Source of the DNA: Methanotrichaceae archaeon
GTDB lineage: Archaea; Halobacteriota; Methanosarcinia; Methanotrichales; Methanotrichaceae
Length of the DNA: 64,000 nucleotides
Direction of reading: 5' to 3'
NCBI GenBank assembly: GCA_963748825.1
Contig: CAVVKN010000004.1
Span: 32,001 to 96,000, forward strand
The position numbers and the translations under genes are program-made. Shown piece after piece: positions 6,935 to 47,174 of this stretch. Each line of letters starts with the position of its first letter. The stretch's first letter is position 1. A model generated the notes under the pieces. That model did no database searches and had not been told where the DNA came from. It saw only the letters and a list, made by a program, of their open reading frames with translations.

Positions 6935-7008
6935 AAAATGGGAGGGCGGGCAAAGTCTATGATGAACCATTTAGGAGGAAACAATGGTCTTGGTCGACTT
7001 TTGCCCGT
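6935..7008 (-). ncRNA. Candidate anti-SD hairpin sRNA, copy A
   Basis: TATA TTTATAT at 7035-7029; stem CGGGCAAAAGUC/GACUUUGCCCG; inner stem ACCAUU/AAUGGU with loop GUUUCCUCCUA; tail CCCUCCCAUUUU. Confidence 0.65.
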
Positions 7009-12121: not shown

Positions 12122-12191
12122 GATCGGCAAAAGTCGAAGTAACTCTTTTCTCTCCCTCTGATCCCTGAGACTTTTGCCTCCCTCCTATTTT
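12122..12191 (+). ncRNA. Candidate anti-SD hairpin sRNA, copy B
   Basis: BRE/TATA CGAAAA-CTATATAT at 12089-12102; perfect 10-bp stem GGCAAAAGTC (12126-35)/GACTTTTGCC (12169-78); CU-rich loop; tail TCCCTCCT-ATTTT. Confidence 0.7.
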
Positions 12192-17778: not shown

Positions 17779-19431
17779 TTATTCCTCCCCCATGCCGCCC
17801 ATACCGCCCATGCCACCGGGCATGCCACCCATGCCGCCAGGCATGCCGCCCTGTCCACCGGACTTGGAGGCGATGACATCGTCGATCCTGAGAATCATGA
17901 CTGCGGCCTCTGTAGCACTGTTGATGGCCTGGGTCTTGACCCGCAGGGGTTCGACTACGCCTAGCTTTAGCATGTCCACCGGCTCGCCTGTGTCCATGTC
18001 CAGGCCGGCGCTCTTATTGCCTTTCTCATGCTGGCTTCTCAGAGACACCAGGGAATCGATCTGATCCAGACCGGCGTTCTCGGCCAGGGTCTTGGGAATG
18101 ACTTCCATGGAGTCTGCAAAGGCCTCAATGGCCAGCTGCTCGCGGCCGCCCACTGTTGCGGCATACTCGCGCAGACGCAGAGCCAACTCGACCTCAGGGG
18201 CACCGCCACCGGGCACAATCTGTTTGTCTTCTACGACTACGCCCACAACGCGCAGCGCATCTTCCATGGCCCGGCTCAGCTCATCGACTACGTGCTCGGT
18301 TCCGCCACGCAGGATGATGGAAACTGACTTGGGGTTCTCGCACTCTACCACGAAGGTCATCTTCTCGTCGCCGATCTTCCTCTCCTCGACCAGGCCTGCT
18401 TTGCCCAGGTCGTTCTTGGTCAGATCGTGGATGCTGGTGACAACTCTTCCGCCTGTAGCACGGCCCAGCTTCTCCATGTCGCTCTTCTTGACACGGCGCA
18501 CGGTGTAGATGCCGGCCTTGGCCAGGAAGTGCTGGGCCAGGTCATCGATGCCTTTCTGGCAGAAGACGACGTTGGCGCCGGTGGCCATGATGTCATCCAC
18601 CATGCCCTTGAGCATGGTCTCTTCCTGGTCCAGGAAGGCCTGCAGTTGGTCGGGTGAGGTGATCTCGATCTTGGCATCGACCTCAGTCTTCTCAATCTCG
18701 ATGGCGGCATTGAGCAGAGCAATCTTTGCGCCTGTAACCTTCTTGGGCATATTGGGATGCAGCCGGTCCTTGTCGATGACCATGCCGTGTACCAGCTCGG
18801 AATCGGTAATTCCGCCGCCCACCTTCTTCTCCACGGTGATGTTGTCGGTGTCGACAGACCCGTCCTCATCCACTACGGCCTTGACAGCCTCAACGGCCAG
18901 GTTGGCCAGCTCGTCTCTAGCTGTGCCAGATCCCTTGCCGGTCATGGCGGTGACGGCGATCTTCTTTAAAAACTCAGTATCTTTAACAGAGACATCAACG
19001 GCAATGGCCTTGAGAATCTCCAGGGACTTGTCTGCCGCAGCCCTGTAGCCGGCAGCGATAACCGTGGGATGAATCTCCTGATCCAGCAGAGCCTCGGCCT
19101 GCTTGAGAAGTTCCCCAGCAAGCACAACGGCGGTAGTGGTTCCGTCTCCAACCTCGGCATCCTGGGTCTTGGCGATCTCCACCATCATCTTGGCGGCGGG
19201 GTGCTCGATGTCCATCTCCTTGAGAATAGTAACACCATCGTTGGTTATTACTACGTCTCCCATGGTGTCGACCATCATCTTGTCCATGCCCTTGGGGCCG
19301 AGTGTGGTTCTGACGGCTCCTGCCACGGCCTTGGCGGCCATGATGTTCGACCTCTGTGCTTCCCGGCCAGCCGTTCTTTGGCTGCCTTCCTTGAGAATAA
19401 GTACTTGCGCTCCACCAAATTGTCCTGCCAT
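17779..19431 (-). CDS. ths: Thermosome (group II chaperonin) subunit
   Basis: [33 protein letters not shown]-repeat tail. Confidence 0.97.
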
Positions 19432-24326: not shown

Positions 24327-27053
24327 ATGTTCTCCGAGGATGAGTATCGATTAGACTTCTTCGTGGATGAGGGATTCCAGCGCAAGAAGTGCGACAAATG
24401 CGGCAAATTCTTCTGGACCAGGAACGGCGAGAGGAAGACCTGCGGGGACCCGCCCTGCGATCCCTATACCTTCATAGGCTCGCCCATATTCAAGCGCGAG
24501 CACACATTAGATGAGATGCGCGAGCACTACCTCAGCTTCTTTGAGGCCAGAGGGCACGCCCGTATCAATAGGTATCCGGTGGTGGCCCGCTGGCGAGACG
24601 ACATTTACCTCACCATCGCCTCCATCGCCGACTTCCAGCCCTTTGTGACCTCCGGGCAGGTGCCGCCGCCCGCCAATCCACTTACCATCAGCCAGCCCTG
24701 CATCCGGCTGGACGATCTCGATTCGGTAGGGCGCAGCGGAAGGCATCTCACCACCTTCGAGATGATGGCCCACCACGTCTTCAACACCAGGGAGAAAGAG
24801 CACTACTGGAAGGACCACACGGTGCGGCTCTGCGATGAGCTGCTGGTCGGCCTGGGCATGGACCCCCTGGCTGTGACCTATAAGGAGAATCCCTGGGCAG
24901 GCGGCGGGAACGCCGGACCCAGCGTGGAGGTCATGGTCGGCGGCCTGGAGCTGGCAACGCTTGTCTTCATGGACCTGAAAACCGCGCCCGGAGGGCCCAT
25001 CCAGATAAAGGACGAGTCTTACGAGAAGATGGACAACTACATCGTGGACACCGGCTACGGTCTGGAGAGGTTCGTCTGGGCCTCCAAGGGCTCCCCTACC
25101 ATTTACGATGCCATTTTTCCCGATCTGGTCAGAAAGGTGGCCGACCTTGCGGGCGTCGAGCACAACCTGCAAGATCCCGAGTACGCCGAGATCTTCGCCC
25201 AGAATGCCCGGCTGGCAGGCATGGTGGACCTGGACGAGTACAGCATGTCGGATCTGCGAGCTAGAATTGCGGGCAGCATCGGCATTTCGCCAGAGAAGCT
25301 GGAGAAGACCATTGAGCCCATGGAGCGCATCTATGCTGTGGTGGACCACACCCGCTGTCTGGCCTACATGCTGGGCGACGGGATCATCCCCTCCAATGTC
25401 AAAGCGGGCTACCTGGCAAGGCTGGTCATCCGTCGCACATTGCGCCTGATGAAGGAGCTGGGCCTGTCTCTGCCGCTGGCGGAATTGGTGGAGATGCAGA
25501 TCCAGCGGCTGGACTATTCGGATTGGCCGGAGCGCTTTGTCACCATCAAGGAGATCCTCGACCAGGAGGAGCAGAAGTACGCCGAGACCCTGGAGAAGGG
25601 CAAGCGTCTGGTCAAGAAGACGGCCGAGCACTTCAAAAAGATGGGCCAGCCCATTCCCCTGGTGGAGATGATCTCCCTTTACGACACGCACGGCATTCCC
25701 CCTGAGATCGCTCGCGAGTCGGCAGAAGAGATGGGAGCGACCGTGGAGCTGCCGGACAATTTCTACTCACTGGTCGCCAAGAAACGCATCCGGGCCGAAA
25801 AAGAAGAGGCCAAAGCCACCCTACCCGGCAAGACGGATCTGCTCTTTTACGAGCATCCCTTCGAACAGGTCTTCGAGGCCCAGGTTCTGGATGTTACGAA
25901 GGACGGCAGTGTCATTTTGGACAGGACGCTTCTCTACCCCGAGGGCGGAGGCCAGCCGACCGATCACGGCACTTTGGAGAGGGGTGGCCGGGTCTTTGCG
26001 GTAGTGGATGTGCAAAAGTCGGGAGACGTGGTGCTGCATAAGCTGGCAACGCCGGGCCTGGAGAAGGGCGACCACGTTACCGGCAAGGTCGACATGCGCA
26101 GGAGGCTGGCACACGCCCGTCATCACACGGCCACCCACCTGGTGCACGACTCGGCAAAGCGCGTTTTGGGCAAGCACGTCTGGCAGGCCGGTGCCCAGAA
26201 GAGCGAGGACCGGGCCCGTCTGGACATATCCCACTACAAACGCATCACCGACCAAGAGCTGAAGGCGATAGAGCTAGAGGCCAATCGGCGGGTGATGGAG
26301 ATGGAGCCGGTGGACACCCAATTCTTGCCCCGCACCGAGGCGGAAAAGCTCTTCGGATTTGAGCTGTACCAGGGAGGCGTGCCGCCTGGAAAGATGATTC
26401 GCGTGGTGCGGGTGGGCACAGATATCGAGGCCTGCGCAGGAACGCACGTCACCAACACGGGCATGATCGGGGCCATCAAGATCCTGCGCGCCGAGCGTAT
26501 CCAGGACGGCGTGGAGAGGATCGAGTTTGCGGCAGGTGAAGCAGCCGTGCGGGCCGGCCAGGAGCGCGATGATCTGCTCTCTGGAGCCGCAGACGTCCTG
26601 CGCGTGCCGAACGAACAGCTGCCCAAGACCGCATCGCGCTTCTTTGAAGAGTGGAAAGGCCAGCAGAAGGAGATCGAGCGGCTGAAAGAAGACTTGGCCA
26701 AGGCGCGGCTCAAGACCTTGATTGCTGAGGCCGAGATCATGGACGGCCTGAAGGTCGTGGTGCAAAAGATGGGCAGCGCCGACATCGATGAGCTTCTCAA
26801 AGCGGCGGCACTTTTGGCGGCGCAGGACTGCGTCGCGCTGCTGGGCAGCGAGACGGGCAAGCTGGTGGCGGCGGTGGGCCAGTCGGGCCTGGTGAATGGC
26901 ATCAAGGCGGGCAGCATCATCCGGGCTGCGGCCAAAGCCCTGGGCGGGGGCGGTGGAGGCAAGCCGGACCTGGCTCAGGGCGGAGGGCCCAACGTCGAGA
27001 AGCTGGACGAGGCCTTGAAGGCGGGAAGAGAGGCGATGAGGGCCGGGTTCTAG
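24327..27053 (+). CDS. alaS: Alanyl-tRNA synthetase (archaeal type)
   Basis: N-terminal Zn motif; RHLTTFEMMAHH; DTGYGLER; editing HHTATH and CAGTH; C-terminal DHHA1 GGGGG. Confidence 0.98.
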   Translation: MFSEDEYRLDFFVDEGFQRKKCDKCGKFFWTRNGERKTCGDPPCDPYTFIGSPIFKREHTLDEMREHYLSFFEARGHARINRYPVVARWRDDIYLTIASIADFQPFVTSGQVPPPANPLTISQPCIRLDDLDSVGRSGRHLTTFEMMAHHVFNTREKEHYWKDHTVRLCDELLVGLGMDPLAVTYKENPWAGGGNAGPSVEVMVGGLELATLVFMDLKTAPGGPIQIKDESYEKMDNYIVDTGYGLERFVWASKGSPTIYDAIFPDLVRKVADLAGVEHNLQDPEYAEIFAQNARLAGMVDLDEYSMSDLRARIAGSIGISPEKLEKTIEPMERIYAVVDHTRCLAYMLGDGIIPSNVKAGYLARLVIRRTLRLMKELGLSLPLAELVEMQIQRLDYSDWPERFVTIKEILDQEEQKYAETLEKGKRLVKKTAEHFKKMGQPIPLVEMISLYDTHGIPPEIARESAEEMGATVELPDNFYSLVAKKRIRAEKEEAKATLPGKTDLLFYEHPFEQVFEAQVLDVTKDGSVILDRTLLYPEGGGQPTDHGTLERGGRVFAVVDVQKSGDVVLHKLATPGLEKGDHVTGKVDMRRRLAHARHHTATHLVHDSAKRVLGKHVWQAGAQKSEDRARLDISHYKRITDQELKAIELEANRRVMEMEPVDTQFLPRTEAEKLFGFELYQGGVPPGKMIRVVRVGTDIEACAGTHVTNTGMIGAIKILRAERIQDGVERIEFAAGEAAVRAGQERDDLLSGAADVLRVPNEQLPKTASRFFEEWKGQQKEIERLKEDLAKARLKTLIAEAEIMDGLKVVVQKMGSADIDELLKAAALLAAQDCVALLGSETGKLVAAVGQSGLVNGIKAGSIIRAAAKALGGGGGGKPDLAQGGGPNVEKLDEALKAGREAMRAGF

Positions 27054-30757: not shown

Positions 30758-30805
30758 ACTATTCTTTACGGATTAGAAACGCCCGCCGAGGGAGATCAAG
30801 CAGCA

Positions 30806-31148
30806 CAAGACCTTGATCGCTGAGGCCGAGATCGTGGAGGGCCTGAAGATAGTGGTGCAGAGGAGGAGCAGCGCGGACATAGATGAGCTTCTCAAGGCGG
30901 CGGCCCTTCTGGCGGAGCAGGACTTCGTCGCACTTTTGGGCAGCAAGACGGGCAAGCTCGTGGCCGCAGTGGGCCAGTCGGGCCTGTCGAAGGGCGTCAA
31001 GGCGGGGAGCATCATCCGGGCCGCGGCCAAGGCCTTAGACGGAGGCCGAGGAGGCAAGCCGGACCTGGCTCAGGGCGGAGGGCCGAACGTCGAGAAGCTG
31101 GACGAGACCTTGCAGGCAGGAAGAGAGGCGATGAAGGCTGGTTTATAG
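30806..31148 (+). pseudogene. Duplicated 3' end of alaS (DHHA1/C-Ala domain)
   Basis: Colinear 343-bp copy of 26711-27053; about 18 of 110 aa differ, including GGGGGG to DGGRGG. Confidence 0.9.
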
Positions 31149-44695: not shown

Positions 44696-44894
44696 GCAAC
44701 TACTCCCTTTCTTCCCCTGCTAAACTATCCCTTGCCAGGATCGCGATTCACGATCCGGACTGATTTAAATAAGACTAAATCCCTTCTCTGCCTTTTTTTA
44801 TATTTCTATCTATAAATGCGTTTCGGATGTTTAGGAAAAGAATCCATCGCAGACATAATTATTGTTTTATAGCTCAATAGATATACTTGACAGT

Positions 44895-46103
44895 ATGGAC
44901 CCGTTCCTCGCCTTTCTGGCAGCGGTAATTTTCGTCAGTCTGATCATACCCAGGCTCGGGCCGTTCTTGAGTTTAGTCATCTCCGCTATCGCCTTTGGCC
45001 TCCTGGTGGGCATGGGTGAAGAGGTGCTTGGATATGTGTCCACGGGCCTATCCCGGATCTTTTCCACCCTGGCCATAGTAGTATTCAGCGGTGCCCTGCT
45101 AGCAGAGTATCTGCGCAGAACGGAGAGCTTAGAGCGAATCGTTGCCGACCTGGGGCGACTGGCCGACAAAAGCCTGCTCATCGGGGGAGCGGCCGGTTAC
45201 CTCATCTCGCTGCCCGTGATGTGCAGCATCACCGCCTACATGATTTTGCAGCCGGTGGTAAGCGGCCTGGCCGGAAAAGACGGCGAGAACGGCAAACGGG
45301 CCCTTTTCATGACGGCAGCCTGCTCCATAATTTCTTTCAACCTCATCTATCCCTCCCCCGTCATGATCACACTCTCCACAGGTCTAGGGGCGGAACCACG
45401 CGATCTGCTCATGCGCGGCATTCCTATCTCGCTGGTTTTGTTCGCCCTGGCCTACATCCTTATGAAGCATTTTTTCCCAGCGAAAACAGAATCAAGAGAG
45501 ATCAGAGCCCCTGCTAAAATGAGCCGATCACGTGCCTGGGCCCCTCTGCTTGTACCAATAGCCCTGATCTTATTTGGCGGCCTGCAGGAGCAGACGCGCA
45601 TTTTGGCAGATCCAGGCGTAGCACTGCTCCTGGGAGCCATGCTCTGTTTGGCACTGGAGAGAAAGAAGATGCAAGAGCTGATTCATGTAGCCTCGCGAAG
45701 ATCCGGCGTGATATTGCTGGACCTATGCGGAGCGGGTGCTTTCGGCTATGTGGTAGCGCAAAGCGGCCTATCTCAGGAGATCTTCCGCCTGGGCCATTTT
45801 CTGCCCGCTCTGCTCCTGCCCTTCCTGGTATCTGCCGCCCTGCAGCTCGCCCAGGGCTCAAGAGTTGTGACGGCAACAGTAGCCACTCAGATCATGGCAA
45901 GCTATCCCCTGCCTGCGGTAACTTTAGCCCTGCTCATCGCGTCAGGAGCGTTCATGTTCTCCTATGTCACCGATCCTTACTTCTGGCTCATCAAGAGCTC
46001 CACAGGGGCGAGCATGAAGCAGACGGTTCTGGGATACACTCTGCCCCTCAGCCTGCTGGGCCTGGCCGCCTTCGCGCTAGCTGCAATATCGTCGATATTA
46101 TGA
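44895..46103 (+). CDS. GntP-family permease
   Basis: About 12 TM segments; LIYPSPV, AQGSRVVT, FSYVTDPYFWL. Confidence 0.85.
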   Translation: MDPFLAFLAAVIFVSLIIPRLGPFLSLVISAIAFGLLVGMGEEVLGYVSTGLSRIFSTLAIVVFSGALLAEYLRRTESLERIVADLGRLADKSLLIGGAAGYLISLPVMCSITAYMILQPVVSGLAGKDGENGKRALFMTAACSIISFNLIYPSPVMITLSTGLGAEPRDLLMRGIPISLVLFALAYILMKHFFPAKTESREIRAPAKMSRSRAWAPLLVPIALILFGGLQEQTRILADPGVALLLGAMLCLALERKKMQELIHVASRRSGVILLDLCGAGAFGYVVAQSGLSQEIFRLGHFLPALLLPFLVSAALQLAQGSRVVTATVATQIMASYPLPAVTLALLIASGAFMFSYVTDPYFWLIKSSTGASMKQTVLGYTLPLSLLGLAAFALAAISSIL

Positions 46104-46194
46104 GGAGATACTATGGGCAGGGGTCTGAGATGAAAGCAGCTGCAGAGGATGGCAGCATTTCCAAGAGAGAAGGTGCAAGTCACAAAATTGTGTA

Positions 46195-46261
46195 ATTAGG
46201 AGGGAGGCAAAAGTCCTGAAACATAGGAGGGAAAGAAATGAGTCTTCGACCTTTGCCAATC
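46195..46261 (-). ncRNA. Candidate anti-SD hairpin sRNA, copy C
   Basis: BRE/TATA CGAAAT-CCTTAAATA at 46296-46282; stem GGCAAAGGUC/GACUUUUGCC (one G-U); loop CAUUUCUUUCCCUCCUAUG; tail UCCCUCCU. Confidence 0.7.
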
Positions 46262-46373
46262 TAACTATACGTCAATCGCCGTATTTAAGGATTTCGTTCA
46301 CTCCGGTTAAAGAGTCAGGATTTAGAATTCTGTATCTGGCATGCATTTGGGAGTCCTCATCTGTGTTTTGCAT

Positions 46374-47174
46374 TCAGGATTTCGCCAGATCAAAGACCCA
46401 ACGGCAGACTCCGGGGGCAACATTGCCGCAGCTGCGAGCTTGCATAACCACCAGGCCCAGATCTTCGTAGCTCTTCTTGAGCGGCTCGATCTGGTGGCGC
46501 TTCTTGAAGGTATAAAAGTGCAAGCTTCCCTTGGATTTCACCAGGGGCAATACTGTTTCCAAAATCCCGTCTGCTCCGTAGGGCGCAGGAATGACGGCCC
46601 TGTGGAAATCCTTCCGGAGCAGCTTTGCCATATGAAAGGCATCGGCGTTTATTATCGCTATCCTCCTTTCCACTCGATTTCGCCGGGCGTTCTCCGCCAG
46701 ATAAAGGCATGCTTCGCGACTTTTCTCCAGTGCCAGGACATGGGCGCCCCGAGCGGCCAGGGGAATGGCAAATGGTCCCACGCCCGAGAAAGGAAGCAAC
46801 ACATCCTCACCGGCCACGACCGCTGCCGCCACCCTCATTCTCTCGTAACCGAGATGGCTGTTAAAGAAGACATTTGCTACATCCAGACGGTAGAGAAAGC
46901 CGAATTCCTTATGAATGGTGATGGTATCACCGACACCGGCCAGTAGCTCGAAGCCGGCCACCCTTCTCTCACCTTGCAGCTTGGAGGTCTTATTCAGCAC
47001 GGTATGAATGCTCTTGCCAGAAGAGAGCACAGCCCCAGCAATCTCCTTCTTGTAAGATGCCAGCTCCGGGGCAAGGGAGAGTATGGCAATATTCCCAATG
47101 ACATGAAAGCGATCCGATAGCCTGCTCAAGCACTCCTGTGGCACAACTCCTTGCAGCTTCTCTTTGAGGCGCAT
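46374..47174 (-). CDS. Trm5/TYW2-family SAM-dependent tRNA methyltransferase
   Basis: FHVIGNIA, HKEFG..YRLDV..VFFN, FSGVGPFAIP, ENARRN. Confidence 0.82.
   Translation of the reverse strand: MRLKEKLQGVVPQECLSRLSDRFHVIGNIAILSLAPELASYKKEIAGAVLSSGKSIHTVLNKTSKLQGERRVAGFELLAGVGDTITIHKEFGFLYRLDVANVFFNSHLGYERMRVAAAVVAGEDVLLPFSGVGPFAIPLAARGAHVLALEKSREACLYLAENARRNRVERRIAIINADAFHMAKLLRKDFHRAVIPAPYGADGILETVLPLVKSKGSLHFYTFKKRHQIEPLKKSYEDLGLVVMQARSCGNVAPGVCRWVFDLAKS

Follow-up and report, generated by a model that had tools for sequence, protein, structure and literature searches.

Where the genes for a GntP permease and a TRM5/TYW2-type methyltransferase converge, within a 64,000 nt stretch of Methanotrichaceae DNA (hereafter the window), they leave a gap of 270 nt, and the element that occupies this gap raises the question of whether it is a small-RNA gene in its own right and, if so, which mRNA its product would act on. 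A first-pass annotation had placed here, on the minus strand, one copy (copy C) of a small-RNA family and had compared it with a copy B; the window holds two further copies, A and B. The element (46194–46296, minus strand, Table 1) comprises a BRE/TATA promoter, a 10-bp stem, a 32-nt loop with the sequence CCCUCCU, and a 3′ tail with a second CCCUCCU. Read from 46296 to 46194 the minus strand is CGAAATCCTTAAATA, followed by 20 nt and GATTGGCAAAGGTCGAAGACTCATTTCTTTCCCTCCTATGTTTCAGGACTTTTGCCTCCCTCCTAATT, as it had been described. The 16S rRNA of the organism ends in GGAUCACCUCCUAAC, and the CCUCCUA present in both loop and tail is thus a true mimic of the anti-Shine-Dalgarno (anti-SD) sequence. 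Transcription in archaea usually starts 20–25 nt past the TATA box and ends at oligo-T, and the copy C RNA would likely be about 75–80 nt long if the T4 run at 46184–46187 is its stop.

Table 1. Coordinates of copy C, its parts, its neighbours and related features (window positions unless a genome and contig are given).
Feature	Position	Strand	Basis or remark
GntP permease ORF	44862-46103	+	PF02447, E 1.1e-29
T4 run, likely transcription stop	46184..46187	-	oligo-T position
3′ tail UCCCUCCUAAUU, second anti-SD-like motif	46194..46205	-	resembles 16S 3′ end CACCUCCUAAC
Stem 3′ arm GACUUUUGCC	46206..46215	-	consensus fold; unchanged among copy-C orthologues
32-nt loop GAAGACUCAUUUCUUUCCCUCCUAUGUUUCAG	46216..46247	-	unpaired or weakly paired in MFE and centroid folds
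Seed CUCAUUUCUUUCCCUCCU (5′ half of loop), complementary to target SD, spacer, AUG and next two bases	46225..46242	-	exact complement in genome
Stem 5′ arm GGCAAAGGUC	46248..46257	-	consensus fold of 11 copies in own genome
Predicted transcription start region, 20-25 nt past TATA box	46257..46262	-	inferred from usual archaeal TATA-to-start spacing
Spacer CGGCGATTGACGTA between TATA box and start; near-palindrome; possible operator or proximal promoter element	46268..46281	-	conserved among paralogues and copy-C orthologues
Archaeal promoter: BRE-like CGAAA, TCC, TATA box TTAAATA	46282..46296	-	conserved in copies
TRM5/TYW2-type methyltransferase ORF	46374-47174	-	PF02475, E 1.5e-29
Copy B	12123..12191 (first placed 12126-12185)	+	covariance model 67.5 bits; alignment with copy C
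Copy A	6935..7008 (first placed 6941-7005)	-	covariance model 51 bits; fold -23 kcal/mol, z -3.84
Metatranscriptome contig, run X4	46202-46297		over copy C
Metatranscriptome contig, run X1	46195-46428		over copy C
Metatranscriptome contig, run X2	46120-46467		over copy C
Metatranscriptome contig, run X3	46013-46244		over copy C
Predicted target genes	G000:C9:268210, 269435, 270529		tandem, near-identical

Strand, fold and promoter

The fold of copy C favours the minus strand, with a free energy of −16.0 kcal/mol (z −1.98) that was equalled or bettered by 4 of 200 shuffled sequences, whereas the plus strand had a z-score of +0.44 and 128 of 200 shuffles folded as well. The proposed strand also had the lower z-score for copy B (−3.18, against −1.18 for the other strand) and copy A (−3.84 against −1.52). 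The 5′ arm of the stem is GGCAAAGGUC in copy C and GGCAAAAGUC in copy B, while the 3′ arm GACUUUUGCC is identical in both, and the earlier observation that the A-to-G change between these copies preserves pairing (as G-U) on the minus strand only is correct, as the other strand would have A-C. Across 73 aligned family members 99.2% of the 729 stem cells are paired, and 43 of them are G-U or U-G wobbles (A-C on the other strand) versus 6 non-pairs, in an alignment that was itself fitted to the covariance model. This excess of wobbles over non-pairs gives good support to the minus-strand assignment, and the argument on strand in the first-pass annotation holds.

Pairing is not all that is conserved in the stem. 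A compensatory change (G-C to A-U, in 5 sequences) was seen in 1 of the 10 pairs only, with 2 pairs never varying and 6 varying on one side only among the 73 members. The family stem thus appears to be conserved mainly as sequence and could serve something other than folding; such conservation hints at a protein partner.

On the plus strand the loop segment CAUUUCUUUCCCUCCU becomes its reverse complement AGGAGGGAAAGAAAUG, which might be a real ribosome binding site (RBS) for an 8-codon ORF (MSLRPLPI) in the 3′ region of the GntP transcript, given the perfect SD sequence, the 6-nt spacer, the ATG and the short open frame (46223–46249). However, copy B has no ATG at this position, the plus-strand fold is no better than that of shuffled sequences, the G-U wobbles turn into A-C mismatches, and the promoter points the opposite way. 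A functional plus strand is therefore barely credible, and the SD/ATG frame is probably the mirror image of seed and stem.

All 11 copies of the first alignment, and further copies too, have the BRE-like CGAAA and the TATA box about 24 nt ahead of the stem, and this promoter layout recurs upstream of the two tRNA genes in the window (cGGAAAggTTGATATA and cGATAAAggTTTAAAT). The spacer downstream of the TATA box is a near-palindrome, which reads CGGCGATTGACG in copy C and CGGCAATTGCCG in copy C17 (G000:C17, upstream of 26019). It is conserved among paralogues as well as among copy-C orthologues, with the following ~10 nt varying freely, and it may constitute an operator through which a single regulator acts on all of the small-RNA family.

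Contigs from four metatranscriptome runs, representing relatives that are 90–99% alike, cover the copy C element together with its promoter and flanks (Table 1). Such contigs give no starts, ends or strand, the shares in the RNA sequencing runs were small (0.05–0.14), and read-through from the methyltransferase gene or carry-over of DNA would explain the contigs equally well. From the layout of the DNA we infer that the copy C RNA would be made from its own start.

Alternatively, copy C may be no more than the tail end (3′) of the transcript of the methyltransferase gene, or may terminate transcription of both converging genes, and the small RNA would then be a 3′-UTR fragment without a promoter of its own. 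The element does lie 113 nt downstream of the co-directional methyltransferase gene and faces a converging gene, the X1 contig stretches from within the methyltransferase gene to slightly beyond the tail (46195), the X4 contigs contain promoter bases, and there is a T-run at 46184–46187. Contig ends are not RNA ends, however, and 8 of 16 copies have a divergent, not a co-directional, ORF as their closest upstream neighbour (using crude calls of ORFs ≥110 aa), while four copies follow each other in tandem at G000:C14:28295-28784 (+) (locus L127), 120–180 nt apart and each with its own TATA box. Furthermore, copy-C orthologues share an invariant TATA box but show no conservation in the 71 nt that precede it, and the terminator explanation does not account for the invariant seed in the loop, nor for the co-variation of this seed with a distant gene described below. 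Action solely as a terminator of converging transcripts was the way in which the first-pass annotation had allowed that its own reading might fail, and the divergent and tandem copies make this quite unlikely.

Members and conservation of the family

Family members were gathered by a regular-expression scan and then with a covariance model built from 11 copies of the genome itself, which gave 14 matches at E ≤ 1.5e-5 in the 2.88-Mb genome. Copy C is thus confirmed as belonging to a small-RNA family, with at least 14 copies in this genome that each carry the BRE/TATA motif. All copies have a loop containing CCCUCC or a close variant (CCUCCU in two copies, CCCUCU in copy B), and in the copies of this genome a second CCCUCC directly follows the stem (CCCTCC in the 11 aligned, several of which then have C instead of T). 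The loop of copy A forms an inner hairpin that presents GUUUCCUCCUA. Two divergent, weak matches to the model (G000:C10:12374-12447 on the plus strand and C6:114453-114527 on the minus strand, E 0.03–0.05) have kept the TATA box and C-rich loops, and may represent decaying or fast-evolving members of the family.

The model matched all of the 61 Methanotrichaceae genomes searched, representing 16/16 genera, with 1–17 matches per genome. When applied to a class-wide sample it detected the family in 59/59 Methanotrichaceae genomes, with single weak matches in 12/54 genomes of family f3 and 2/2 genomes of f5, and none in the three genomes of f2 and the two of f4. Five of these outside matches were examined (loci L166–L170, in genomes G069, G068, G095, G118 and G129; E 4.5e-6 to 5.5e-4), and these resemble the family in having a TATA box ~24 nt upstream, the stem GGCAAAAGUCGA...GACUUUUGCC and the C-rich loop motif AUCCCCUC, but differ from it by occurring as one copy per genome, with longer A/U-rich loops and without the CCCUCC tail. 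These single-copy relatives are probably true homologues. An exact search with a 17-mer spanning the 3′ arm and tail found at least 122 stretches in the public genome collection; among the 80 matches listed, 74 were from Methanothrix, Methanotrichaceae, Methanosarcinales or an 'uncultured archaeon', and the 6 from bacterial metagenome-assembled genomes were taken for chance.

There was no match to the element in Rfam (release 15), where only the two tRNAs of the window reached the gathering score, and at E ≤ 10 the region 46100–46400 gave only a chance 9-bit match to sR28 on the opposite strand. Our literature search, with most subscription journals outside its reach, found no paper on small RNAs of Methanothrix/Methanosaeta, and the stem and tail sequence strings gave none either; the supplement of a Methanolobus dRNA-seq paper contained no relevant match, and a transcriptome paper on M. 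thermoacetophila does not mention the terms sRNA, noncoding or intergenic. The small-RNA family is apparently undescribed as far as this search reached.

The boundaries of the repeated unit are sharp, with BLAST outlining a block of ~100–108 nt (window ~46191–46299) that is present many times per genome at 77–86% identity, as might be expected from a dispersed repeat, either MITE-like or a mobile unit carrying a promoter, that has no function as RNA. This is highly improbable given that in 18/19 same-genus loci the copy C unit has kept its position between the genes for GntP and the TYW2-type methyltransferase, adjoining the 3′ end of the latter, that no family genome searched lacks the family, and that conservation is patterned (promoter, stem, seed and tail are kept and the rest is free) rather than uniform. 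Copy C would on this evidence be an old, fixed gene.

The window holds other repeats as well. Between 35682 and 39062 there are at least 11 copies of a 51–71-nt unit, spaced at multiples of 126 nt and 60–75% alike, which has the look of a protein module repeated within one large gene, and two 300-nt stretches located 4095 nt apart (26705–27004 and 30800–31099) are 87% identical.

An alignment of copy C with 19 counterparts (20 sequences) showed which parts of the element are fixed. The loop stretches UCAUUUCUUUCCC, which includes CAU, and TCATTTCTTTCCC, and the 13 nt at 46229–46241, were unchanged in 20/20 sequences, as was the TATA box TTAAATACG, and the GATTG.CG part of the spacer was likewise invariant. 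The 5′ arm is invariant except for one A/G position, which pairs as A-U or G-U, and the 3′ arm and tail consist of CTTTTGCC, one variable base and CCCTCCTA, without further variation. At the predicted start ~10 nt vary, as does the 3′ half of the loop, where indels occur too, and a run of 4–5 T residues is found downstream at the same distance in most, not all, orthologues. The CCUCCU of the loop beyond CCC has been lost in 6/20 sequences, hence masking of the SD sequence proper may be partial in these. An RNA contig of a relative (run X4) is without 7 nt at 46215–46221, in the variable 3′ half of the loop, and has stem and seed intact.

A candidate target and its co-variation with the seed

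The 13-mer GGGAAAGAAATGA, complementary to the invariant stretch, is found at four places in the 2.88-Mb genome (G000), namely in the small-RNA gene itself and at the starts of three tandem genes on contig C9 (Table 1). The search for targets with the loop sequence, as had been suggested together with the claim that this loop complements an SD sequence and start codon, thus led to three genes that are matched across SD, spacer and AUG. An 18-nt exact complement, AGGAGGGAAAGAAATGAG, is located at G000:C9:270516-270533, at the start of a gene encoding 242 aa, where it spans SD, spacer and AUG plus two bases more, while the other two tandem paralogues can pair with the copy C seed over 14 nt. A match of 18 nt was reached by 1 of 300 shuffles of the query, and the duplex ranked first of 2088 seed-filtered windows, at −34.8 kcal/mol versus a mean of −17.3 (sd 4.6) when energies were computed with the copy C loop only; the second-best duplex (C11:40046, −34.4 kcal/mol) is rich in G-U pairs and not at a gene start. 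For the other 15 paralogues the longest stretches of complementarity measured 12–16 nt, and were mostly not at gene starts. An outlier target was thus found for copy C only, with the other paralogues giving matches of background length. The description of the loop as combining anti-SD and anti-AUG sequences stands for copy C, where CAU is invariant and the complement falls on the initiation regions of the three genes, but does not extend to the family, since other paralogues are without CAU. The seed is fixed among orthologues and different between paralogues, as a specific antisense function predicts.

The predicted target protein has 242 aa and an N-terminal helix resembling a signal peptide. 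It had no significant Pfam match (two sub-threshold matches being due to chance), and sequence searches of NCBIfam and the PDB were empty. Of 2462 homologues the best 120 were inspected, and among these every named protein was 'hypothetical' and the named organisms were Methanothrix or Methanotrichaceae. Using tblastn the protein was found in 61/61 family genomes with 2–22 matches each, at 70–92% identity among the matches listed, and an AlphaFold2 model made from a 16-row alignment had a mean pLDDT of 30.9. Identity with the sheath protein MspA was ruled out by size, as the accessible text of the source gives 60.9 kDa for MspA (PMC6242892).

The target genes are part of a cluster of genes for secreted proteins (G000:C9:268210-274989, locus L201), which holds the three near-identical 242-aa genes and two further genes, all without a known family; the fourth gene has 82% identity to the 242-aa genes and a TTG start, and a 264-aa gene has a similar signal peptide and C-terminal cysteines, and is 21% identical. 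At three places a family member lies 0.3–1.6 kb from a paralogue of the target protein (G017:C31:19358-19387 and 18090-18878; G049:C1:869982-870047 and 870364-871137; G000:C13:27060-27123 and 25028-25435), and this proximity could be chance, both having many copies.

Two patterns were sought in 101 family genomes, one being the seed with the 3′ arm after it and the other the start region of the target. In the 34 same-genus genomes that had both patterns the seed had U in all, and the target had A, with the exception of one of three target rows in genome G036 and one of two in G017. In other genera one position of the target spacer is C or U, and small RNAs there carry the matching G or A. Seed G was found together with target C in G003, G018, G028 (genus g3), G029 (g4), G026, G015 (g15); the seed contexts of G028 are full family members, and G015 also contains an A-seed small RNA with a U-type target, its C-type target starting with GUG. 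A looser pattern detected two small RNAs in G014 and six in G016, both with UUCGUUCCC and C-type targets, as well as one small RNA with UUCGUUCCC in G023. The reversed-pattern control gave 0 matches in one scan and 1 in the other. A small RNA with a matching seed was not found by the patterns used in G039, G019, G002 and G010 (C-type target) and G011 (U-type), and genera g5, g6, g8 and others had neither the seed nor the target pattern in the scan. As the genomes and genera are related, perhaps about two of the compensatory events can be counted as independent. The matched changes suggest that the pairing of seed and target has been maintained in evolution.

The constant parts of the RNA allow for another explanation, in which the RNA binds a protein or associates with the ribosome, and the stem and the two CCUCCUA sequences mimic the 16S 3′ end in order to titrate a factor, with no antisense action on specific mRNAs. 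This would fit with the stem being kept as sequence and not merely as pairing, with GGCAAAAGUCGA...GACUUUUGCC being kept even in other families, with the similarity of the tail to the 16S 3′ end, and with 15/16 paralogues being without an outstanding target. It offers no reason for the copy-C seed to be fixed among orthologues outside CCUCC and different between paralogues, nor for the 18-nt match to a start site and the matched base changes across genera, and is rather unlikely as the full account. A protein-binding or 16S-mimicking role of the constant parts may coexist with an antisense role.

Proposed mechanism and comparison with known systems

Our best explanation, to which we assign a probability of roughly 0.65, is that copy C encodes a trans-acting small RNA that masks a ribosome binding site. 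The region 46184–46296 (minus strand) would be a small-RNA gene with its own archaeal promoter, and one paralogue of a multicopy family confined to the Methanotrichaceae and a few relatives. The 10-bp stem would hold open the 32-nt loop, with a single-stranded 3′ tail following, and the 5′ half of the loop, CUCAUUUCUUUCCCUCCU, would pair with the translation initiation regions of the three tandem genes on contig C9. Such pairing would extend from the SD across the spacer to the AUG and two bases beyond, and would repress translation by denying the small ribosomal subunit its binding site. The pairing would take place in the cell, and its outcome would be repression and not stabilisation. As for the invariant stem and the second CCCUCCU, in the tail, our guess is that they probably form a common scaffold, serving as a protein-binding site or as a generic contact with SD sequences.

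A more far-reaching version, which we regard as tentative and on the whole doubtful, is a modular guide system where the promoter with its operator-like palindrome, the stem and the anti-SD tail form a constant scaffold read by a dedicated protein, with the variable seed aiming each paralogue at a different mRNA, and with copy C and its relatives co-evolving with multicopy secreted proteins that are restricted to the Methanotrichaceae. If so, the system would control the building of the envelope or filaments in a main producer of methane.

To our knowledge, few archaeal small RNAs have a known target. New in this study are the specific target, the co-variation of seed and target, the synteny and the relatives outside the family Methanotrichaceae. 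The predicted pair of small RNA and mRNA, with exact complementarity at SD and AUG that matched changes preserve from genus to genus, is directly testable, and its target belongs to an unstudied protein family that is highly conserved, multicopy and equipped with a signal peptide. The size of the RNA family and its presence in every family genome searched suggest broad translational control that annotation has missed. Methanothrix is an acetate-consuming methanogen that ranks as a major source of methane of biological origin and does not lend itself easily to genetic manipulation, which makes regulatory links derived from sequence valuable.

Masking of ribosome binding sites has been described for small RNAs of Methanosarcina mazei, where the available part of the source reports that sRNA41 and loop 2 of sRNA154 cover such sites, with translational repression as proposed outcome (PMC5867862). 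For sRNA162 of the same organism, an anti-RBS part and translational repression are likewise proposed in the part consulted. Going by those parts, these RNAs resemble copy C in being intergenic small RNAs of methanogens of the same class with proposed RBS masking. They are, however, single genes with experimental support, whereas the Methanotrichaceae RNAs occur as 1–17 matches per genome with a common promoter, stem and second anti-SD tail, and are known from sequence alone; the likeness lies in the proposed mechanism. The family covariance model had no match in 13 genomes of genus g21 (2.9–4.1 Mb), presumed to be Methanosarcina.

Multicopy small-RNA families with C/U-rich anti-SD motifs are also found in bacteria, where they include the csRNAs of Streptococcus (anti-SD plus anti-AUG), LhrC1-5 of Listeria and RsaE of Staphylococcus. 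In these families sibling RNAs share a scaffold, and motifs of the CCUCC or UCCC type, placed in loops or single strands, pair with the SD sequence and start codon of mRNAs that often encode envelope or secreted proteins. The bacterial RNAs belong to another domain of life, have bacterial promoters and Rho-independent terminators and share no homology with the Methanotrichaceae family, yet are alike in the way they would work.
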